DNA from: Methanobacteriota archaeon
GTDB taxonomy: Archaea > Thermoplasmatota > Thermoplasmata > SG8-5 > JAGLSY01
Direction of reading: 5' to 3'
DNA: 64,000 bases
NCBI GenBank assembly: GCA_020697715.1
Contig: JAEHCO010000002.1
Coordinates: 192,001-256,000 of the forward strand
Below, one piece after another: positions 5,649 to 17,335 of this stretch. The translations under genes were made by a program, and so were the position numbers. Each line of letters opens with the position of its first letter. Position 1 is the first letter of the stretch. The notes beneath the pieces were generated by a model. That model saw only the letters and a list, made by a program, of their open reading frames with translations, was not told where the DNA came from and made no database searches.

Positions 5649-8600
5649 TTACTCAATCTCATCTTCGGATTCGACCTGTTCTGGTTCTTCACTGACTTCC
5701 TCCACAGGTTCTTCTGTTTCAGGTTCATCAACAGCTTCGTCCATTGGTTCCTCTGCGGTTTCCTCAGCCACTGGCTCATCCTTGTTGCCCTTGCCCTTCA
5801 TTATCAATAGAAGAGCAATAACGCCGACCACTGCGAGTATGAGGATTATGTAGAGCCAGTTATTAGCAGGCTCATCGCCTGTGTCATCGGTATCGTCATC
5901 ATCTTCCACAATGTCATCTATAACAAGGCCAGTTGTCGAATCTTCTGCCGTGTAGCCCGGATTCCATTCGTCAGGAGCTCCGTCGTCATCAGCGTCAATA
6001 GACGCTGATGGGTCAGTTGGGAATGCATCGGCATTGTCGCCGGTTCCGTCACCATCTGTATCGGTTGTCTCGGTAGCATCACTGGGGAAGGCATCGCTAT
6101 TATCCCCTACACCATCTGAATCTGTATCAACGGTCTCGGTGGCATCATTGGGGAAAGCATCGTCATCATCTGGCACGCCGTCATCATCCGTGTCTGTTTC
6201 TGTAACTATTTCTCCAATTGCAGGGTCCAAAGGATCCTGATCATCAGCATCGTCTACGCCATCACCATCGTCGTCATTATCCGCATTGTTGCCAGTGCCA
6301 TCCCCATCGGTGTCCACTGTCTCTGCATCATCCAATGGGAAATCATCATCCACATCATCGACCCCATCGCCATCGTCATCAGTATCTGCATTGTCGCCAG
6401 TTCCGTCGCCATCGGTATCTGTGTCTTCAGATGGATCTGTTGGGAAATCATCATCAACATCTTCGACACCATCATTATCATCATCACCATCTGAACCATC
6501 AGCAACACCATCACCATCCGTGTCCAGTAAGATCAAGAGCGTGGCATTGGAATAAGCAATGCCGCCATTACCATCACTTACACTGACACTGACATTGTAA
6601 TAGCCAGCGTCTGCATTTTCGGGACTTCCGGTCAACTCTCCTGTGGCTGGATCGATAGACAACCAGGCAGGTCCAGTAATAGACCATGTAAGAGTGTCAC
6701 TCGTGTCACCATCGGTGACTGTGAAGTTTTCAGTGAAATCACTTCCAGTATTGAAAGTGGACTCGGTGAAGCCAGCAGTAATCGCAGGCATATCATTCAC
6801 ACCAGTTATTGTTATTGTCACAGTTGCATTATCGAATCCGCCATTTCCATCATGTATGGTGTAATTGAAAGTATCTGTCGTACTCTCACCAACAGCCAGT
6901 GTTTGATAGGAGGGTTCAGCAATTGTGAGATAGGTGAATATTCCATCTGGGTTCACGGTAATACTGAGGCCATTGGCAGTTAGTGGATCATTGTCAATTA
7001 CCTGGAAGACATCTGTGGTATCTGGATCATTATCATTACCCAGAACATTACCATTCAGAGGTGTATCCTCGTCAATTGAATATACGTCGTCAACTGCAAC
7101 TGGCACATCATTGACATTGGTCACCGTGATAGTGAAATTACTCCAACCTATACCACCATTGCCATCATCAACAGTCACATTCACCCATTGAGTTCCAACA
7201 TCTGCATTGGTGGGTGTGCCGGATAAGTTACCTGTATTATTATCTATACTCAACCAGCCAGCATTGGTATTCAGGCTCCAATTGAGCACATCGCCTTCGA
7301 TATCCGTGGCATTATAATCCACACTGTAAAGCACATCTTCTAGGGTTACGATGACATCTGCTGTGGTAATCACTGGCATATCATTAACATTTGTCACTGT
7401 AACATTGACAATAGCAGCATGAGTTCCTCCATTGCCATCAGAGATAGTGTATGTGAAGAAGTCTGATCCGAACCAATTCGCACTGGGTTCGTAGGTCACA
7501 TTCTTGCCAGCATCTATTATCGCGACTGCTCCATTGACACCCTGGGTCACACTTATTATTGTTAGATAGTCGCCATCTGGATCTGTATCATTGGTCAGTA
7601 CATTGATCGTATTGGCACCACTGTCCTCGATCGCTGTGTATGTATCATCCACTGCGACAGGCGAAGTGTTCATGGTAACATTGCTCGAAACATTATTATT
7701 GCCCATATTTGGATCAAAAATATCTGATACAGAAGTTCCATCCAGATAGAATGCACCGCTTTCATTTGCCACGAGACTGACTTGCATCCAGGCAGTCTCT
7801 CCACTGGCCAAATAGCCTATCAACCATGACAGTCCGCCTTGCCATAATATAGTGTCAGCAGACTGATTATTTCCCTGGTATATCACATCATTACCGCTTC
7901 CCGTCACGGTGACATTGACATTCACTGCATTGTCTGGTCCATCATTTGTGATATTCACGTAAAATATCACAGTTTCTCCTACATTTATGTGAGATGGAAC
8001 TGCATCCACGGTCAGATCAAGGTCTGCTATTGGGGTTGGAGGAGTTGTACCAAATGCCTGAAGGAATGGATAGGTATTTTTCTCGTATATCCCCCACACT
8101 GTGGTAAAGTTCCAGTTCGTGAAGGTAGCTTGGCTCATCATCTCTAATGTATCATTTCCTGTTCCACCATTACTGCTCACTTGTCCAGATGTCTCTATGT
8201 CCCAGAAACAATCATTGTTGGTGCCAGTACCATTATCTCCGATAAAGCCACCAACATCCACGCCTGCTCCGCTGACACTGCCAACACTGTAGCAATTTGT
8301 GATTGTTCCACCTTGATTGTATCCTGCAAAGCCGCCAACGAAATCTGTTCCAAGACTATCCCCTGTGCCATAGCAATCCATGATGGTTCCAGCTTGATGA
8401 TATCCTGCAAAGCCACCAACATACCTATCTCCACTGGCAATTCCCGTGCTGTAGGATATGGAGATGGTACCTGCGAACATCCGCCCTACGAAACCACCTA
8501 TAATATCATCACTGGGTGTGTTCCCTGTGCTGTAGCTGTCGCTGTAACATTGAGTTATGGTTCCGCCAATAACCCATCCTACAAAGCCGCCGACATATCC

Positions 8601-11600
8601 CTCTCCACTGGTGTTTCCAAATGATGTGCAGTTGGTGATGTCTCCACCATTATTTCCTGTAAAACCACCAACATAAAGGTTCATGGCACTTACATTTCCG
8701 ATGGCGGAGCAGTCATTTATCGCGTCCATATTTCGCCCTGCGAAGCCTCCGACATTGATATCAATTCCAGTAGTGTCTCCTGAGCTGTGGCAATTTGTGA
8801 TAGTTCCAGTTTGATGATATCCTACAAAACCACCAATGAATCCATCTCCATATACATCACCATTGGCCGTACTATTTGAGACATCGCCCCAGTTCTCTCC
8901 GACCGATCCACCAACATAGTCACAGTCCACATCGTATCCAGTAACATCACCGTCGGCATGACAGTTCTCGACGGTCCCATCATTTGTTCCAATGAGGCCG
9001 CCAATATAATCGACACTACTTGATACATCACCATAGGCATAGCAATCGATAGCAGAGCCAGTTGGTGGCTGATAACCTATCAGACCGCCTGTGTTGACAT
9101 CCGTATTATTTACATTACCGTAGGCAGAGCTGTTAGTTACTGAACCGTCATTCCTGCCTATCAGGCCACCAACATCATTGTCACTGCCCGTTACATTACC
9201 CTCTGCCAGTGAATCGATCACCGTACCATGGTTCTCACCAACAGAGCCACCTATCGCCCTTGTTCCGTTCACGGTCCCATAAGCTGTGCATGACTCAATA
9301 TAACCGCCTTCTGTGTAACCTACGGCTCCGCCCACGTACAGGATTCCCGAAACATCGCCGTATGAAATTGAATTGGTGACATTGGCCATTATCGAGCTAT
9401 CATCATTGTATCCCACAATACCTCCAATACAGTCGTCAAGTGCATTAATGGAGCCATGGTTGATCCCGTTAACAACATCGCCGTAATTCTCACCGGCGAT
9501 CCCTCCAACGGAGTTCCAGCCATTGATATCTCCATAGTTCTCACAATCATATACGATATTATTATTGAGACCTGCAATACCAGCGTGGCCCCAAGTATTC
9601 AGGGTGGCCGCACTGATATTTCCATAATTGGTGCACATTGTGATATTTCCATCATTCTGGCCGACGATCCCACCTACAGCCATAGCCACTCCTGTGACAG
9701 TTCCAAAGGCCTCGCAATCATATATCAGATTATTATTATCTCCGGCAAAGCCACCTATTTCATTCATTGTCCCCGAGGCATTTCCAAATGCTGTTGAATT
9801 CTCAATGGTGCCAAAGTTATGGGAGGTAAATCCTCCGATGGTTCCGTAGCCAGACACATTTCCATAGGCCTGGCAATCGTATATCAGGCCTGAATTGTAA
9901 CATACAAAACCACCGTTCTCATTTCCACCTGTGACCGTTCCAAAGGCTGAACAATTGGTGATCGTACCGCTGTTCTCGGCAATGAAGCCTGCCATTCCTG
10001 GCTGTGAGCCTCCATCAACGGTTCCAGAGGACCATGAGTCCCTGATAATGCAATTGGCCTGCGACAGACCTGCAAACCCTCCGGATAGGGTTCCACCTAG
10101 CGTCATAGCAATGTCTCCGGTCGAGGTGCTGTTGTGTATGGTACCACTGGACAACATTCTTCCAATTACACCTCCGGTATGGTCCCTGCCAGTCACATCG
10201 CCAGTATTACCACTGTGTGTGACAGATGCCCCATCGGCCTGACCCACGATACCTCCAACAATATCATCGACAGAATATATATCATTATAATTATAGCTGT
10301 AAGATACGCTACCACCGAGCATTTCTCCCACAATACCGCCGGTCATTCCCCCATTTGAATCTATCATTCCATTATTGACACAGTTGAAGATCGTTCCTCC
10401 GTCCGAGATACCTACTATGCCTCCGACTCTATAAGTGGAGAACAAGGTATTGTTCACATAGCCCCAGTTATTACAAATTATGACATCACCATTGGTCGCG
10501 CCCACAACTCCCCCAACATTACCAGCGAGGCCAGTTATGTCTCCATAGGCATCGCAATTGCTAAGTTGGCCACCAGCGAGCATCTGCCCCACCAGGCCAC
10601 CTACAAAGCTCGAACCAGATACAGTACTTGAGGTAAAGGAATTGGTGACACTGGCTTTGCTGTATCCAATAAGTCCACCAGTCCGAGATCCTGCTCCAGT
10701 AACATCGCCTGTCGCATTGCAACGAGTAATTGTATTATCGCTATTACCTGTCAAGCCTCCTGTGTTTATTCCTGAGCCTGTAACATCACATGATGACCAG
10801 CAGTCCGCTATGGGGCCAGAGAGTGAACCTATCAGGCCACCGGTGTCTGTGACTCCCGAAACAACACCATGGGATGAGCAGAATTCCACATTCCCGAAGT
10901 TCCATTTCGCTCCTGCCAGCATACCAACCGAATCTCTTCCAGTAACATCGCCAGATACTGAAACGTCTGTCACGTCTCCAAGGACACCTATAGCTCCGAA
11001 AAGACCCTGGTAGTCCTCAGCTGGCCTGTTGATGTAAAGACCAGTTATCGAGTAACCCTGTCCCTGGAATGTGCTATCAAAGCTGGTTCCCTGGAAGTCT
11101 ACAGTTCCGCTGTCAGTGTCGGGAGCAATGGGCAAGAATCCTTTTCCTCCGTTGGAGGCATTGGTTCCCCACATCTGCGCTGCATCCAGAATATCCATCT
11201 GGACATCATTGCCCAGTTCGTAATCCGCAGTCGTATCCATGGCCATTAATTGAAGTTCATGTGAATTGGTAATTCTGGTATTGTATTCCATCCTGAGGAA
11301 GGGACGGGTCTCGCCTTCGATCATCCACCAGTCATTTGTGAAGTCCCAGCCAGATCCTGTGTATGTTGTCTCTGTCATTGCCTGGGCTGTTGTAAGTCCA
11401 GTCGCTCCACTAGTATTCCCACTTTCTATCCCAGTTGCCATAGCGGAACTGGCTGTGTCCCAGAAAGAATCCATGACAGTCCCTGCATTACTACCCAGGA
11501 ATCCACCAAGGTTTGCGCCTCCGATCACACTTCCTGTTGCATATGAACTGTTGATCCATGCAGTATTATAACCAACTAGACCGCCAATGAACTGGCCATC

Positions 11601-13463
11601 CAAAGTTGTGGCTGATGTTACATCTACAAGGGCATAACAATCATTCACAGCCCCTGCACTGTTGTATCCAACAAGGCCACCTATATTGTCATGGGTTCCA
11701 GTTATGGTTCCCGTGGCATAGGATGTGATCACGCTGCCCTGCCAGTTATAGCCAGCCACTCCGCCCATAGCACTTCTTCCGACCAGGTCTCCATCAAAGT
11801 AAGAGTTCTCGATCAAGCCGCCCTGATTGTATCCAACAAGGCCGCCGGAGTTTATATTACCTTCAACATCCACTGTAGAGAAACAGTTCGATATCGTACC
11901 CTGTATATTGTGTCCAACAAGGCCACCTATCATCTGTGTAACTCCTGATACTTTGCCTGATGCATAGCAATTGGAGATGGTTCCTTGGATCGCAGAGCCA
12001 ACTAAACCACCAACATAATCATTACCAGTTATGTTCAAGTTCACCAGACCGACATTTGAAATCGAACTTCCGGTATCCATTACTCCAAACAAACCCAGAT
12101 TATTAACTCCTGTATTGTATATGTAGAGATCAGATATTGTGTGATTATTGCCATTAAGGGTGCCAGTAAATTCAGCAGTGGCCGATCCAATATGATAAAA
12201 ACCATTTCCTGGCATTGTTGTTGTGGACCACATGCTGGAGGGTTCTGTCGAGTCAACCTTGAAATCCTGCATTATCTGATAATCTGCCGATAAGGTGCCA
12301 GCGTCCATCATTATCAACTGAAGCTGGTGGGAATTGCGAATATTTGTGTTGTATTCTGACTGAAGGAAAGGTCTGGTACGGAAATTGCCCATCCACCAGG
12401 TGGAACCAAAATCCCAGCCAGCATAGTTAGCCTGGGATAATGCTTGGGCGGTTGTAAGGCCAGTTCCCGCTGCACTGGCTCCCAATCCTGAGGTGTCAGA
12501 GTCCCAGAAGCAGTTGGTCACTGTACCGCTTGGTAAGTTACCGATAAATCCACCACTAGTACCTCCGGTCGCAGTGCCAGTACTGTAGCAGTTCTCGATG
12601 GTCGTGCTGCCTGTTTCCTGCATACTTCCCACAAATCCACCAACGAAATTGACACCGGTCTCAGCATCTCCCAGCGCATATGAATCATATATATCGCCAT
12701 AGTTCAAGCCAGCGAACCCACCAACATAGGATGAGGTGCTGTATACACTTCCTGTGGCATAGCATCGGCGGATTTCACCAGTAACCTGATTAAAGCCAAC
12801 AAGACCACCGTTTGCCTGGTCGCTCCCAATGACATCCGCCTGGCTGTAGGAATCAAAAATCTGGTTATGATTGTTGCCAACAAGGCCACCAACATAACCC
12901 CCCGTGCCTTCAACATTTCCTTGAGAGGATGATGACGTTATTGGACCAGCGGATGATTGGCCTATTAGGCCCCCTACATTTTGGACTCCGGAAACCTCTC
13001 CAGAGACCATGCAGTTATTGATAGCCCCATCATTCTTTATACCTACAAGACCCCCTACCCAGTCTTCTCCGGTTATGTCAACATCTATAAGATTGAGGTT
13101 GGAAACAATGGATCCTGTTGTCATGATAGATATCAATCCAACAAAATCCTCTGTTGGCCTATTCATGTAAAGTCCGGATATTGTGTACCCTTGACCATCA
13201 AAGGTACCGCTAAATCCTCCGATGGTATCAAAGCCCAGACCTCCATTCCAGTTCACGGTATCACTGGCATCGATGTCATTCATCAGAATATGATCTTGGT
13301 CTCTGTGGGCATTGATATCCTGCAGATCTGCAAGTGTGAATATCTGGTAGAGGGCTCGTACCTCATCCCCATCATCCTTTGCCTCAACATCGTTCCCGAT
13401 CAAGATGATAAAACTACTGGCTATTAGCATGGCGCATATCAATATAGTGGATATTTTCCTCAT
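5649..13463 (-). CDS. giant GLUG-repeat surface protein/adhesin with DUF11-like, cadherin/Ig-like and thrombospondin type-3-like Ca-binding repeats and C-terminal TM
   Basis: Dozens of G...VGGLVG.N..G.I.N.Y repeats. ADL...NDGPD.A module, PVAVDD...NDTDPDGD and WLSID..TG.L.G.P modules, and DTDGDG.GDN.DAFP repeats. TM near the C-terminus. Confidence 0.85.
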   Translation of the reverse strand: MRKISTILICAMLIASSFIILIGNDVEAKDDGDEVRALYQIFTLADLQDINAHRDQDHILMNDIDASDTVNWNGGLGFDTIGGFSGTFDGQGYTISGLYMNRPTEDFVGLISIMTTGSIVSNLNLIDVDITGEDWVGGLVGIKNDGAINNCMVSGEVSGVQNVGGLIGQSSAGPITSSSSQGNVEGTGGYVGGLVGNNHNQIFDSYSQADVIGSDQANGGLVGFNQVTGEIRRCYATGSVYSTSSYVGGFAGLNYGDIYDSYALGDAETGVNFVGGFVGSMQETGSTTIENCYSTGTATGGTSGGFIGNLPSGTVTNCFWDSDTSGLGASAAGTGLTTAQALSQANYAGWDFGSTWWMGNFRTRPFLQSEYNTNIRNSHQLQLIMMDAGTLSADYQIMQDFKVDSTEPSSMWSTTTMPGNGFYHIGSATAEFTGTLNGNNHTISDLYIYNTGVNNLGLFGVMDTGSSISNVGLVNLNITGNDYVGGLVGSAIQGTISNCYASGKVSGVTQMIGGLVGHNIQGTISNCFSTVDVEGNINSGGLVGYNQGGLIENSYFDGDLVGRSAMGGVAGYNWQGSVITSYATGTITGTHDNIGGLVGYNSAGAVNDCYALVDVTSATTLDGQFIGGLVGYNTAWINSSYATGSVIGGANLGGFLGSNAGTVMDSFWDTASSAMATGIESGNTSGATGLTTAQAMTETTYTGSGWDFTNDWWMIEGETRPFLRMEYNTRITNSHELQLMAMDTTADYELGNDVQMDILDAAQMWGTNASNGGKGFLPIAPDTDSGTVDFQGTSFDSTFQGQGYSITGLYINRPAEDYQGLFGAIGVLGDVTDVSVSGDVTGRDSVGMLAGAKWNFGNVEFCSSHGVVSGVTDTGGLIGSLSGPIADCWSSCDVTGSGINTGGLTGNSDNTITRCNATGDVTGAGSRTGGLIGYSKASVTNSFTSSTVSGSSFVGGLVGQMLAGGQLSNCDAYGDITGLAGNVGGVVGATNGDVIICNNWGYVNNTLFSTYRVGGIVGISDGGTIFNCVNNGMIDSNGGMTGGIVGEMLGGSVSYSYNYNDIYSVDDIVGGIVGQADGASVTHSGNTGDVTGRDHTGGVIGRMLSSGTIHNSTSTGDIAMTLGGTLSGGFAGLSQANCIIRDSWSSGTVDGGSQPGMAGFIAENSGTITNCSAFGTVTGGNENGGFVCYNSGLIYDCQAYGNVSGYGTIGGFTSHNFGTIENSTAFGNASGTMNEIGGFAGDNNNLIYDCEAFGTVTGVAMAVGGIVGQNDGNITMCTNYGNISAATLNTWGHAGIAGLNNNIVYDCENYGDINGWNSVGGIAGENYGDVVNGINHGSINALDDCIGGIVGYNDDSSIMANVTNSISYGDVSGILYVGGAVGYTEGGYIESCTAYGTVNGTRAIGGSVGENHGTVIDSLAEGNVTGSDNDVGGLIGRNDGSVTNSSAYGNVNNTDVNTGGLIGYQPPTGSAIDCYAYGDVSSSVDYIGGLIGTNDGTVENCHADGDVTGYDVDCDYVGGSVGENWGDVSNSTANGDVYGDGFIGGFVGYHQTGTITNCHSSGDTTGIDINVGGFAGRNMDAINDCSAIGNVSAMNLYVGGFTGNNGGDITNCTSFGNTSGEGYVGGFVGWVIGGTITQCYSDSYSTGNTPSDDIIGGFVGRMFAGTISISYSTGIASGDRYVGGFAGYHQAGTIMDCYGTGDSLGTDFVGGFAGYNQGGTITNCYSVGSVSGAGVDVGGFIGDNGTGTNNDCFWDIETSGQVSSNGGTGNDTLEMMSQATFTNWNFTTVWGIYEKNTYPFLQAFGTTPPTPIADLDLTVDAVPSHINVGETVIFYVNITNDGPDNAVNVNVTVTGSGNDVIYQGNNQSADTILWQGGLSWLIGYLASGETAWMQVSLVANESGAFYLDGTSVSDIFDPNMGNNNVSSNVTMNTSPVAVDDTYTAIEDSGANTINVLTNDTDPDGDYLTIISVTQGVNGAVAIIDAGKNVTYEPSANWFGSDFFTYTISDGNGGTHAAIVNVTVTNVNDMPVITTADVIVTLEDVLYSVDYNATDIEGDVLNWSLNTNAGWLSIDNNTGNLSGTPTNADVGTQWVNVTVDDGNGGIGWSNFTITVTNVNDVPVAVDDVYSIDEDTPLNGNVLGNDNDPDTTDVFQVIDNDPLTANGLSITVNPDGIFTYLTIAEPSYQTLAVGESTTDTFNYTIHDGNGGFDNATVTITITGVNDMPAITAGFTESTFNTGSDFTENFTVTDGDTSDTLTWSITGPAWLSIDPATGELTGSPENADAGYYNVSVSVSDGNGGIAYSNATLLILLDTDGDGVADGSDGDDDNDGVEDVDDDFPTDPSEDTDTDGDGTGDNADTDDDGDGVDDVDDDFPLDDAETVDTDGDGTGNNADNDDDGDGVDDADDQDPLDPAIGEIVTETDTDDDGVPDDDDAFPNDATETVDTDSDGVGDNSDAFPSDATETTDTDGDGTGDNADAFPTDPSASIDADDDGAPDEWNPGYTAEDSTTGLVIDDIVEDDDDTDDTGDEPANNWLYIILILAVVGVIALLLIMKGKGNKDEPVAEETAEEPMDEAVDEPETEEPVEEVSEEPEQVESEDEIE

Positions 13464-13549: not shown

Positions 13550-14278
13550 TTATTTGAATCTTATGGTTTCAACATTGAATTCCTTATCTTTGCCAAGAAT
13601 TGTCGGAATGAGCTTGCCCGCATCCTTGATCGCCATTTTCTTGTACTTGCCAGCCAGTGTCTTCATATGAGCTTCCATTCCATCACCGATGACAGCGGCC
13701 GTGAATTCGGCCGCTGTCCCACTCGGATCAATGACAAATAGCCTCGGATGATCGAAGTTAGTGGCAACTAGAAGCCCCACACCCAGTGGTCTTACATCCT
13801 TTTTTATCGTGTGCGACCAATATATTTCCTTTATTGTGTAAAGCATGTCATCCACATTCTTGAAATCCTTGTTCCGAAGCTGATTCAATATCATGGATCC
13901 GTCCATTGCCAGTCCTGCAGTTCCTATCAGGATCTTATTGGATATTCTGTGGATCTTTATCGGGGACATCATTAGCGAATTGCCAGCCTTGGCAGATATG
14001 TCCTCAGATGCCATTAAGATACCATCTGTGCATATTATTCCCATGACACTGGCTCCACGCTTCACACTTTCGCGGGCATATTCGATCTGATGGATGCGAC
14101 CTTCGGGTGAGAAGAAATTGTCGGTGTCATAGCCCTTGGATATCGGGCCTATGGTGTTCAGGAATTGAACTATCGCCGCTCTGGCCAACTCTGCCTTATT
14201 TCCGAACATCCCACTCTTTATCACCATGTCCAGATAGTTATCTACCTCATCTGGAATTACGACCCTTAATTCTGACAT
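13550..14278 (-). CDS. ribbon-helix-helix domain fused to a divergent proteasome alpha-type subunit
   Basis: MSELRVVIPDEV...SGMFGNKAELARAAI (CopG/RHH-like) is followed by GYD...FSPEGRIHQIEYA, RPLGV and DPSG. Start placed at 14278 because GGAGG lies just upstream. Confidence 0.8.
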   Translation of the reverse strand: MSELRVVIPDEVDNYLDMVIKSGMFGNKAELARAAIVQFLNTIGPISKGYDTDNFFSPEGRIHQIEYARESVKRGASVMGIICTDGILMASEDISAKAGNSLMMSPIKIHRISNKILIGTAGLAMDGSMILNQLRNKDFKNVDDMLYTIKEIYWSHTIKKDVRPLGVGLLVATNFDHPRLFVIDPSGTAAEFTAAVIGDGMEAHMKTLAGKYKKMAIKDAGKLIPTILGKDKEFNVETIRFK

Positions 14279-14307
14279 TTTGATTTCCTCCATTACATTT
14301 CGGGAAT

Positions 14308-14338
14308 TTGAATGTTCGAACTGATTTCAAACATTCAA
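14308..14338. promoter_or_regulatory. inverted repeat upstream of RHH-proteasome gene (candidate operator or leader hairpin)
   Basis: TTGAATGTTCGAA-CTGAT-TTCAAACATTCAA, arms match at 12 of 13 positions. Confidence 0.55.
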
Positions 14339-14498
14339 CATCTGCTTTGTTGATTTGCATGAATTATCCGCCAAAACGGACTTTTCAAGTATAATAGGTG
14401 TATGTTCAACGTATTATTTAAGAATTATGCTAAATAATTGTATATTTGGGATTATCAAATAGCTGAATATTGAGGCTCTGTTTGACCAATAAGGATAC

Positions 14499-15818
14499 TC
14501 AGTTCTTTCCAAGCATCTTCTGTATGTTCTTGATGCGTGCATCTTCCTTCTTGACCACATACCAATCCAGAGCATCTATCAGGACATCCTCCGCTTTGGC
14601 CATATCACCCTTCTTGTGATACATCTTCCCCATCTCCTCGCGAGTTATGGCCAAGTAGTCCGGTGAGTTCTCATTGATAACAAAATCTATGCTCTTCTGG
14701 AAATGCATCTCGCTCTCTTGATAGTTCTCGACAGCGGAATAATGCTTACCATACATGCAATGGAGCTTTGAGTGAGCGATAGGATCATTGAAGTTTGCCA
14801 GTATCTTGGACGCTCTGTCCAGATGAGGCAGAGCATCTTCCGCCCTTCTATTCTCGATAAGGGCGCTTGCCAGGTTTGTCATTGTCCAGCCTTCCATTCT
14901 GAGGGATCCGCCTTCTCTGCAATATTTTATGCCTTTCTCGTATCCGTCTATGGCCTTGCTGAAATTCCCCATTTCCTCGTATACTCTGGCCATATTGTTA
15001 TATGTGAGCCCAATGCCAGAATGATCTTCCAATGAAGTGTAAAGTTCGATAGCTTTTTTATTGTGATATATGGACATCTCCATATTCAGGAGATCGAGGC
15101 AAGTATTGCCCAGGCCAGTATGTATCCTGGCCATCGCGCGGTCCTTCTTCTTTTTATCATTCTTTGATGCTGTCGATATTGAAGTAATGACCTTGATAGC
15201 CTCCATATAATGATCCAGAGATGTGCTGTGTTCCCCTTCGCGCCATGATATGATGCCCAGACCATTCCATGCCAGAGCTTTGTCGTAAAGACCATTACTA
15301 CCCAGCTTCATATCGATGACATCATTGTATAGGCTTCGAGCTTCTTCTCTCCCTTCCTTATTGTTTGTAAGGGCTCTTGCCAGCTTCCTTGTTATCATGG
15401 CTTTCAATATCTTATCATCAATATGATTTTTATCATATATTACAAGAGCTTCTCTATAAGCTTCAATGGACTCATCTATCTTTCCAATTTGGATCTTGGC
15501 GGCTCCGATAGTTATCTGAGCCTTGATAGAATCTCTCGGGTCATCTTGTTGTTTCTCAACAGCATTATTGACCATGTCCAGGGCATTTTTATATTGGAGG
15601 ATACCCTTTTTGATGTCATCTGCTTTTTTATCTCCGGTGAAGCTCTTTATAGCCCAATGGATCTGATTTGAAAGCTGCGGCAAGCAATCTGTGTTGATCA
15701 TATCCGGGTCAATGTTCAAATGCTGGCACTGCTTCTGTAAAATGAATTTACCTGTAAATCCTACTTCCCTCTCAAGCAGAGTTTCTAGCTCATCCCTCAA
15801 TTCTAGATTATTGATCAC
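14499..15818 (-). CDS. tetratricopeptide-repeat protein with small N-terminal helical domain
   Basis: Repeated A..YNNMARVY...G....AI..Y-type TPR units. Paralog of the adjacent gene. Confidence 0.8.
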   Translation of the reverse strand: MINNLELRDELETLLEREVGFTGKFILQKQCQHLNIDPDMINTDCLPQLSNQIHWAIKSFTGDKKADDIKKGILQYKNALDMVNNAVEKQQDDPRDSIKAQITIGAAKIQIGKIDESIEAYREALVIYDKNHIDDKILKAMITRKLARALTNNKEGREEARSLYNDVIDMKLGSNGLYDKALAWNGLGIISWREGEHSTSLDHYMEAIKVITSISTASKNDKKKKDRAMARIHTGLGNTCLDLLNMEMSIYHNKKAIELYTSLEDHSGIGLTYNNMARVYEEMGNFSKAIDGYEKGIKYCREGGSLRMEGWTMTNLASALIENRRAEDALPHLDRASKILANFNDPIAHSKLHCMYGKHYSAVENYQESEMHFQKSIDFVINENSPDYLAITREEMGKMYHKKGDMAKAEDVLIDALDWYVVKKEDARIKNIQKMLGKN

Positions 15819-15988: not shown

Positions 15989-17335
15989 TCATGGTTTCAG
16001 GATCGAAATGCCCAATGGGACATATTGGCTATTATGTATCAGCAGGCCTATCTTCTTTATATTATCTTTATCATCATTCTTCTCATACCATGTCAATGCA
16101 GAATTCAATAGTGGCGTGGCCTTCTCAGATTCCCCGATAATATGATAAAGCGTACCCAGCCCCTCCTGGACCCTTGCCAGACATTCGGGTGAATCCACAT
16201 TGATCATACTCTCCAAACTGGCCTTGAAATGTGTCTCACTGTTCTCCCATTCTCTTAGCTTCTGGTAATATTCACCGTACATGTAATGAAGCCTGGATTG
16301 CGCCTCACAATCATTGAATTTAGAAAGGATCCTTGATGCTCTTGATAGATATTCTTCTGCTTGATCGAACTTGCCTTCATTGATCAGTAGGCTAGCAAGA
16401 TTGATGAGTGTCCAGCCTTCTGTAAGTAATGAACCGCCTTCTTTCGTATTCGAAAGCACTTGCTTATACCCCTCGACCGCCTTCTCATAATCTCTCTTCT
16501 GTTCATATATCTGTGCCATTTTGTCATATAGTTCTCCGACCCTGACATAATTCTCCAATTGAAGATTGAGGTCTATTGCAGATTCGGTCAGGTCTATGGC
16601 AATGTCTACTTCGTTCATGCTCTTGTAAATATCAGCGAGACCTGAGTTTATTATACACTTCACCTTCATTTTTTTGATTCTGTCCAGTTTTGTCTGCTCC
16701 TTCATATTCTCAATTGTGCTTAATGCCTTTTCATAATATTCCAGAGAAAGATGTTCATCGCTGTCTTTGAATGCGATCCACCCAAGACCGCAGTAGGACA
16801 GAGCGGTATCGTAATAATTTCTATGTCTTTTGCCTATCGTGATGACCCCATAATACTCTTTGATCGCCATTTCATGACCCTCGGTCTTTGTGCCGAGCAC
16901 TCTGGCCAATTTTCTTTTTATTTTCATTTTCATCCTTCTGTTTCCAGAATATTGACTGTCCTGAAATAGATCATAAGCATCCCTGTATGCATCCTCGGAA
17001 GCATCATACCTCCGTAGTACCAATCGTTTATCTCCTACTGTGAGAAAGGCATTGATGCAGTCCATGGTCTCACTTGTTTCATCATCCAGGGTTTCCAAGG
17101 CTTTGGAATATTCCAATAAGTTCCTGAATACCAATTTTGATTTTCGATCACCTATGAAGCCACTTATCGCAGTCTTGAGATTCCTGGATAGTTCTCGAAG
17201 GTCTTTTATTTCGATATCTTCCTCAGCACCAATGCCTAAGATATCGCACTGCTTCTGCAATATGAACTTGCCACAGAAACCTATTTCCATCTCGAGCATG
17301 GTGATTAATTCATCCTTAAGATGTGATACATTCAA
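15989..17335 (-). CDS. tetratricopeptide-repeat protein, tandem paralog
   Basis: Shares E.GF.GKFILQKQC, RKLAR.L and EGGSL..EGWT..NLAS.LI with 14499-15818. Confidence 0.8.
   Translation of the reverse strand: MNVSHLKDELITMLEMEIGFCGKFILQKQCDILGIGAEEDIEIKDLRELSRNLKTAISGFIGDRKSKLVFRNLLEYSKALETLDDETSETMDCINAFLTVGDKRLVLRRYDASEDAYRDAYDLFQDSQYSGNRRMKMKIKRKLARVLGTKTEGHEMAIKEYYGVITIGKRHRNYYDTALSYCGLGWIAFKDSDEHLSLEYYEKALSTIENMKEQTKLDRIKKMKVKCIINSGLADIYKSMNEVDIAIDLTESAIDLNLQLENYVRVGELYDKMAQIYEQKRDYEKAVEGYKQVLSNTKEGGSLLTEGWTLINLASLLINEGKFDQAEEYLSRASRILSKFNDCEAQSRLHYMYGEYYQKLREWENSETHFKASLESMINVDSPECLARVQEGLGTLYHIIGESEKATPLLNSALTWYEKNDDKDNIKKIGLLIHNSQYVPLGISILKP

Follow-up and report, generated by a model that had tools for sequence, protein, structure and literature searches.

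Ribbon-helix-helix (RHH) domains pair as dimers, and the two-stranded ribbon that they form reads the major groove of DNA. In PutA and NikR an N-terminal RHH domain autoregulates the gene and a large C-terminal domain oligomerises, possibly with a second function or as a signal input. The regulation of archaeal proteasomes is, to our knowledge, known mainly through ATPase and HbYX activators. In this paper we describe a gene in which a predicted RHH domain of the ParD/CopG type is joined in frame to an alpha-type proteasome subunit. It lies on the minus strand, at 13550-14278, of a window of 64,000 nucleotides from a Methanobacteriota archaeon of the class Thermoplasmata (GenBank assembly GCA_020697715.1, contig JAEHCO010000002.1, positions 192,001 to 256,000). 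Our preferred explanation, which we hold with moderate confidence, is that the product is an autorepressor, whose RHH dimers would bind phased boxes in the promoter of its own gene and whose alpha-like domain would provide ring-type lateral contacts for cooperative assembly.

The open reading frame is listed as 13550-14293 (247 aa). We place the true start at the second ATG, because a GGAGG motif precedes this codon and because the homologues all begin M-[AS]-E-[LI]-R there, which gives a product of 242 aa. Its layout is a ParD/CopG-type RHH domain (residues 1-45), a short linker, the N-terminal signature of alpha subunits and the proteasome fold. The genome, of 2.12 Mb in 34 contigs, contains three proteasome-fold genes. 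Two of them score about 203 bits with the Pfam family PF00227 (one of them 203.7) and the fusion gene scores 78.8 bits. We read the two high-scoring genes as the canonical alpha (psmA, C11:162806 onward) and beta (psmB, C11:104694-105236) genes, and the translation of the alpha gene (L001) starts like a canonical alpha subunit. Since the genome also holds these canonical genes, the fusion gene is a third and non-canonical paralogue. The original prediction, made from the sequence alone, had proposed both an in-frame junction of about 45 RHH-like residues with the alpha signature and an extra alpha paralogue. The junction is now backed by Pfam, profile, AlphaFold2 (AF2) and Foldseek evidence, on the minus strand, which had not been specified, and the paralogue by the canonical psmA and psmB found elsewhere in the genome.

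The assignment of the N-terminal domain was approached from several sides. When its 50 aa were searched alone against the PDB, just a GpsB match was returned (E 0.28), and the NCBIfam ParD model TIGR02606 matches the fused protein weakly (E 0.058). A profile built from 19 N-domains ranks the ParD antitoxin 7b22 first in the PDB (E 0.026) and another ParD antitoxin, 3kxe, third (E 0.17), both in one register, with profile positions 6-36 lying on the RHH part of ParD. AF2 models residues 1-9 as extended and residues 10-21 and 28-43 as helices, with a mean predicted local distance difference test score (pLDDT) of 85.0 for the domain alone and 85.6 for the full-length model. In a Foldseek search with the 45-aa model, ParD, PrpA or RHH appears in the titles of nine of the ten best-ranked chains; these nine have TMq values of 0.71-0.78 and E-values of 0.63-4.7, the latter being poor, as one would expect with a domain of this size. 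Conservation was counted in an alignment of 59 full-length fused homologues, on which all residue counts given here are based. Nine residues of the domain are invariant in all 59 members, namely R5, P9, D13, G23, K28, A29, E30, R33 and A35, and E3 is kept in 58. E3 and R5 occupy alternate positions of the N-terminal strand, and the block G23...K28-A29-E30 forms the turn and the start of helix 2.

Relatives of the N-domain also exist on their own. When 1.84 billion cluster representatives were searched exhaustively with an N-domain profile made from DNA references only (E <= 1e-3), 76 matched, of which 27 read as fused (226-301 aa) and the remainder are mostly short (43-155 aa). The ten short relatives that were looked up all have 52-74 aa, and four of the ten lie on contigs of 36-65 kb. 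Four of the ten scanned reach a Pfam cut-off, RHH_1 in the case of P0150, P0142 and P0160 and ParD in the case of P0148, and the N-domain profile matches these four with E-values of 5e-6 to 5e-4. One stand-alone relative is named by its source as an Arc/MetJ-type RHH regulator. A word-index search for short stand-alone homologues returned one truncated fusion fragment only. Because the family-level evidence from the profile, AF2, Foldseek and the stand-alone relatives converges, we accept the N-domain as a predicted ribbon-helix-helix, as had been proposed, and we infer that it binds DNA.

In a set of 80 metagenome loci (L051-L130), stand-alone RHH proteins of 50-80 aa that are close relatives of the N-domain, with the pattern MPELRVTV...SKAE..R, are found in 78. 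No neighbour family is conserved around these 80 loci. A split form of the fusion, with a stand-alone RHH gene beside an alpha-like gene, was considered and rejected, as these loci have just one alpha-like open reading frame near an RHH gene (in L121, encoded on the other strand at a distance of about 1.2 kb). Many of the stand-alone loci carry TATCC-N7-GGATA and a further GGATA 11 nt downstream, placed between a TATA-like box and the start codon. This suggests that the whole RHH family may be autoregulatory, with a related half-site.

Upstream of the fusion gene we compared 17 loci, drawn from the genome families f1, f2, f3, f4, f11 and f16, over a length of 160 nt. Each of the 17 has TAC(A/G) boxes, and in 14 these are phased at 11 nt. 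There are 29 TAC[AG] pairs exactly 11 nt apart, and each other spacing from 5 to 19 nt has 0-2 pairs. In 2000 shuffles the mean number of such 11-nt pairs was 0.23 (maximum 3), and in 1288 control windows from the same loci it was 0.025. The consensus of the box unit is AAATACATTAA, and the sequence between the boxes varies from locus to locus. The last two half-sites of several f4 loci read as an inverted repeat of the type TACGTTAAAACGTA. At three loci (L004, L006 and L023) the array appears to begin just after an A/T-rich, TATA-like stretch, and in most cases 20-60 nt separate the last box from the start codon. In the window the array is separated from the ATG by about 100 nt. A layout of this kind would be that of a classic autoregulated RHH repressor, in which several dimers share a single helix face at the core promoter. 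The regulator reading of the original prediction thus has strong support of an indirect kind, from the conserved 11-nt-phased boxes that accompany the gene across the family.

The putative operator is also rare in the genome. With a matrix made from 43 family boxes and required three times in phase, three places in the whole 2.12-Mb genome exceed the threshold of 18 bits, and the fusion promoter is one of them (22.4 bits). A scan for sigma-70-type promoters and terminators gave no more than chance, this type of scan being unsuited to archaea. The best genome-wide match of the phased-box matrix is outside the window (G000 C22:128162-128210, 27.8 bits; L028/L131) and contains ATACGTTTAAACGTAT. 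At a distance of 60-110 nt it precedes a gene for a 184-aa protein (C22:128272-128826) without a Pfam family, whose nearest clusters in a protein atlas are DUF2378/TIGR02265-like (0.94-0.95). The same-genus ortholog of this gene in G003 has five boxes in 11-nt phase and a terminal TACGTA, that in G001 has one or two boxes, and the homologues in f4 (58-65% identical) have none. The C22 site may represent another target, specific to the genus, or what is left of a copied promoter.

The C-terminal part of the protein is clearly of the alpha type, although it has diverged. The alpha-subunit signature PF10584 matches residues 50-70 above its cut-off of 27.7 bits, and PF00227 matches residues 72-228 with 78.4 bits (cut-off 22.4), whereas the archaeal PsmA equivalog models are far from being reached (TIGR03633, 105 vs 287.35; NF003075, 111.2 vs 219). 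The best Foldseek matches of the alpha part are all 20S alpha chains (E about 1e-17, template modelling score about 0.66). Aligned with canonical alphas, the protein keeps the signature and the motifs RPLGV (residues 163-167) and DPSG (184-187), is 9 residues short in the H1-H2 region and has no C-terminal helix, so that all three peculiarities listed in the original prediction (both motifs retained, H1-H2 shortened, C-terminus truncated) are seen. Across the family the signature is the best-conserved portion of the alpha domain. Y50 (58/59), D51 (59/59), P58 (59/59) and Y67 (58/59) are kept; their equivalents in Thermoplasma acidophilum form the inter-subunit gate cluster.

Because dimerisation of the RHH domain follows from its fold family, the complex model was made for the alpha part, to ask whether it self-associates. 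Four copies of residues 48-242 gave a score of 0.72 (runs 0.54, 0.76 and 0.72), with 0.00 for the best control; among proteins of solved structure, 20 of 30 pairs and one of 23 single chains attain the mark used for this score. Agreement of contacts between runs is 88% or more, with a partner pLDDT of at least 84. The modelled interface is heterologous, or head-to-tail, with Y67 against P58 of the neighbour, and brings residues 50-62, 147-161, 186-195 and 205-212 against the neighbour's 51-53, 64-74, 101-106, 123-132 and 156-166. We read this modelled contact as the canonical lateral contact of alpha rings. The interface residues are better conserved than the remaining alpha domain (entropy 1.15 vs 1.78 bits, p 1e-5), also when residues 48-76 with the signature region are left out (1.46 vs 1.82 bits, p 0.018). 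We take this as weak support for the contact, because the residue set includes core-fold motifs.

A possible connection to the proteasome itself comes from the genome family f4. In all ten f4 loci read, the next gene downstream belongs to the PAC2 family (PF09754, E 1.7e-43) and has the same orientation as the fusion gene, whose stop it overlaps or directly adjoins with its start (among others in L005-L013, for example L006:2226-3011). The pieces on contig C1 of G013, where the fusion copy is interrupted by the contig end, show the same adjacency. The operon-type PAC2 proteins of f4 end in ...MYG, an HbYX-type tail, and PbaB of Pyrococcus furiosus binds and activates the 20S proteasome through such a tail, according to passages of PMC3605417. 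An operon-type PAC2 paralogue (at least 61% identity) is found only in f4 and in the genus of the window, and the ortholog in the window's genome is unlinked (C11:871521-872321). Two other PAC2 paralogues of this genome end in MYS and YIG.

The fusion is neither a singleton nor a decaying gene, two doubts that the original prediction had itself raised. A word-index search returned 92 relatives, about 60 of which cover 98-100% of the query including the N-domain (33-83% identity), and canonical alphas cover 64-79% of it only. For the genome surveys we counted as fused those proteins whose profile match starts at position 1. On this basis the fused form is present in 18 of the 22 genomes of the window's order and was not found in G005 (94% complete), G009 (92%), G017 (70%) and G019 (61%). 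It is present in two of 19 genomes from other orders of the class. Of 401 genomes in an even sample of the phylum six have it, namely the genome of the window, three of the four from f16 and two of the nine from f13. When 185,579 species genomes were scanned with a pattern, 22 loci were obtained, 21 of them labelled Thermoplasmata, Methanomassiliicoccales, Methanobacteriota, Thermoplasmatota or Aciduliprofundum sp. One member of 287 aa has the NCBI name 'proteasome subunit alpha [Candidatus Hodarchaeota archaeon]', and some members are named merely 'hypothetical protein'. The copy in the same-genus genome G002 (C137:3931-4647) contains one in-frame TGA, which reflects a mistake in the assembly or else the loss of this one copy.

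In a tree of the alpha domain (38 fused and 15 canonical proteins, with the genome's own beta as outgroup) the fused proteins are on one side of a branch apart from the canonical alphas. The support of this branch in the Shimodaira-Hasegawa-like approximate likelihood ratio test is only 77, and the fusion may have a single origin. Within the fused proteins there are a long-form clade of 276-301 aa (support 96) and a short-form group (84) that includes the window's protein. In four ortholog pairs the proportion of nonsynonymous differences (pN) is 0.07-0.13 for the N-domain and 0.26-0.34 for the alpha domain, vs synonymous proportions (pS) of 0.59-0.79 and 0.72-0.85, respectively. Both domains are under purifying selection, which is accompanied by a higher conservation of the N-domain (entropy 0.77 bits) than of the alpha domain. 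Given 59 aligned full-length homologues, the fusion is far beyond chance.

These results lead us to the following proposal. In a third alpha-type paralogue the gate tail would have been replaced by a ParD/CopG-type RHH domain. RHH dimers would bind TAC(A/G)T-like boxes that are one helical turn (11 nt) apart, between the TATA-like box and the coding region, and so repress the promoter of their own gene. The alpha-like domain, to judge from the model and from conservation, would have kept its lateral head-to-tail contact and serve as an oligomerisation module, enabling cooperative binding to neighbouring boxes. In f4 the same promoter would drive the PAC2/HbYX gene, and the protein could thereby determine the amount of a factor from the class that docks onto alpha rings. 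A link of the fusion to proteasome assembly is plausible. It rests on three points, which are the retained ring and gate residues, the modelled self-contact and the PAC2/HbYX operon of f4.

Several observations weigh against this proposal. With regard to the N-domain, a single-sequence scan gave no direct Pfam match for residues 1-45, and the matches in the PDB (E 0.026-0.17) and NCBIfam (0.058) are marginal. With regard to the operator, an exact 11-nt pair is absent in three of the 17 loci (L009, L020 and L024), and the statistics overstate independence, because the 17 loci are related to each other. The boxes of the window (TACG, TACA and TACT) are weaker than those of the relatives, and the 110-135 nt between them and the ATG include an unexplained palindrome. 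For psmA, psmB and all three PAC2 genes in the genome no boxes were found upstream, and a regulon among its proteasome genes was rejected on this ground. With regard to the alpha domain, the complex model used its own alignment and four copies, compared to two in the calibration, and its score may only show likeness to rings, because alpha rings have been solved many times. The lysine of the HbYX pocket (Lys66-equivalent) is Lys in 29 of the 59 members, and Cys, Gly, Gln, Ser, Arg or Glu in the others. There is also a mismatch in symmetry between seven-fold rings and two-fold RHH dimers. Finally, PAC2 adjacency is limited to f4, with none in 15 distinct loci read from other families, so that PAC2 was rejected as a general partner, and a search of five genomes with the fusion (G004, G006, G008, G033 and G040) did not find the operon-type paralogue.

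The alternative that survives best, although we think it unlikely, is that the protein is an accessory alpha subunit. It would enter 20S alpha rings, either as a homo-heptamer or together with PsmA, with the RHH domain placed above the pore, where it would act as a cap, a gate or a tether for DNA, and its unassembled pool would autoregulate. The original prediction had likewise named DNA tethering and gate capping. PutA and ribosomal proteins, which feed back on their own genes, offer an analogy, and an operator almost confined to the gene's own promoter would fit well with such feedback. The linker has only about six residues and therefore the RHH domain must adjoin the pore end; seven RHH monomers, however, cannot all pair inside one ring. 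The conserved signature, with the equivalents of Y50, D51, P58 and Y67, and the lateral contact in the model are also what one would expect of a ring subunit, but the scores are far under the PsmA equivalog cut-offs. The missing elements are relevant here too, that is the nine residues of H1-H2 and the C-terminal helix. H1-H2 of alpha subunits faces the beta ring. The flanking helices H1-H4 contribute to inter-subunit contacts, according to passages of PMC8665760. The f4 operon with its PAC2/HbYX gene would suit an accessory subunit as well, but the pocket lysine is kept in about half of the members only; in the relevant passages of PMC3605417 the lysine that receives these tails is Lys68 of P. 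furiosus.

The accessory subunit would have a consequence that deserves mention, doubtful as we consider it. If the protein joins alpha rings, alone or with PsmA and with its RHH domain over the pore, only the unassembled pool would bind the boxes, and this would link proteasome assembly to gene expression. The gene's own transcription would then report the free alpha-type subunits or alpha-ring sites in the cell, with the same readout in some lineages for the PAC2/HbYX gene or the DUF2378-like gene. It would be a case of a proteasome subunit doubling as a transcription factor in archaea, Asgard relatives included.

We find it improbable that the RHH fold is present without DNA binding. The domain would in this case be a dimerisation or partner-binding module only, as in some antitoxins, and the boxes would serve another regulator. 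The sequence and fold matches are indeed weak and only to ParD-type antitoxins, but it is the DNA-facing ribbon and the start of helix 2 that are most conserved (E3, R5, K28, E30 and R33), and in six genome families the gene has the phased boxes with it, irrespective of its neighbours. The stand-alone relatives of 50-80 aa, which are too small for much else, moreover have inverted or phased repeats between the TATA-like box and the start. An annotation artefact or decaying pseudogene, with the start downstream of the RHH domain or an accidental fusion, is hardly credible, since the in-frame TGA of the G002 copy and the 'hypothetical protein' names at NCBI stand against an intact frame with a ribosome-binding-like site at the RHH start, where the homologues also begin, an N-domain more conserved than the alpha domain, 59 full-length homologues and a presence in 18 of the 22 genomes of the order.

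The positions of the features in the window are given in Table 1. The palindrome in the presumed leader is missing in a same-genus genome (L024); it could be a second operator, the site of another regulator or a hairpin of the leader RNA. Directly upstream of the fusion gene there are two paralogous tetratricopeptide repeat (TPR) proteins on the minus strand, of 439 aa (14499-15818) and 448 aa (15989-17335). They have an N-terminal region of about 70 aa in common and weak matches to the TPR model of the proteasome-lid protein RPN7 (E 1.9e-4 and 5.1e-7, respectively). As partners of the fusion they were rejected, since they are not seen beside the fusion gene in the same-genus genome G003. Directly downstream, at 5649-13463 on the minus strand, is a gene for a protein of 2604 aa with hydrophobic stretches at both termini, many repeats of the type G-G-[LFI]-[VIA]-G and acidic D-rich repeats, which is probably a giant surface protein.

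Table 1. Features of the fusion gene and its upstream region, in window coordinates.
Feature	Position	Strand	Details and basis
RHH-alpha fusion gene	13550..14278	-	242 aa, stop codon included; start set by GGAGG and homologue starts
Predicted RHH domain, residues 1-45	14144..14278	-	strand ~2-9, helix 10-21, G23 turn, helix 28-43; AF2, ParD profile matches, Foldseek, stand-alone relatives
Linker, residues 46-49	14132..14143	-	pLDDT < 50 over residues 44-51
Alpha-subunit N-terminal signature, residues 50-70 (YD...FSPEGR..Q.EYA)	14069..14131	-	PF10584, 33.3 bits
Proteasome-fold domain, residues 72-228; shortened H1-H2, without C-terminal helix	13595..14065	-	PF00227, Foldseek, alignment
GGAGG ribosome-binding-like site, 8 nt before ATG	14287..14291	-	sequence reading
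Candidate operator, three 11-nt-phased boxes: TACG 14413-14410, TACA 14402-14399, TACT 14391-14388	14384..14416	-	sequence and phasing
TATA-box-like element TTAAATAA, abutting the first box; putative promoter	14414..14421	-	sequence reading
Palindrome TTGAATGTTCGAA / TTCAAACATTCAA, 13-nt arms, 92% complementary, 5-nt spacer	14308..14338		presumed 5' leader

A full-text literature search found no description of a fusion between an RHH domain and a proteasome alpha subunit, and the literature searched yielded no case of a proteasome subunit made into a transcription factor. In the main text of PMC8665760, a survey of proteasome homologues, the words 'ribbon', 'DNA-binding', 'fused', 'transcription' and 'helix-turn-helix' have 0 occurrences, and its supplements might list the family. 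With its recognisable operator, the fusion would be a directly testable case of a ring-forming subunit that is re-used as an oligomerisation module, or of an assembly state that feeds back on expression. If cultured Aciduliprofundum members carry it, a laboratory organism may be in reach.

The protein can be compared to several known systems. Anbu, BPH, connectase and the new groups surveyed by Fuchs, Alva and Lupas (2021, PMC8665760) are similar in having a divergent proteasome fold with altered helices and quaternary structure; unlike them, the fusion family is clearly of the alpha type. With archaeal PsmA (TIGR03633 / NF003075; 1j2p, 6he7, 8f6a) it shares the signature, the fold, the gate cluster, the RPxG and GxxxD motifs and the modelled lateral contact. 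It differs from PsmA by the 45-aa RHH domain in the place of the gate tail, the shorter H1-H2, the lack of the C-terminal helix and equivalog scores below the cut-offs.

The likeness to ParD, CopG and Arc-MetJ repressors (PF03693, PF01402; 7b22, 3kxe, 7ycv) lies in about 45 aa of strand-helix-helix at the very N-terminus, in the G-x-x-x-[NS]-K-A-E turn before helix 2 and in repeated short boxes in the gene's own promoter. The MetJ box, AGACGTCT, has an ACGT core in common with the boxes of the fusion. Unlike in these repressors, the C-terminal partner is a whole alpha-type fold rather than a toxin-binding tail or small-ligand domain, and the fused N-domain itself stays under the Pfam cut-offs. 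No toxin gene is adjacent to the fusion gene, whose neighbours are the TPR proteins and the 2604-aa protein, so that, with an alpha fold as the C-terminal part, it does not have the makeup of a type II toxin-antitoxin system such as ParD-ParE. The logic of the protein, an N-terminal RHH domain followed by a large functional domain, is the same as in PutA and NikR. It differs from these two in its C-terminal domain, which corresponds to a subunit that forms rings in a protease complex and is not catalytic, so that neither a ligand nor an enzymatic activity would be expected.

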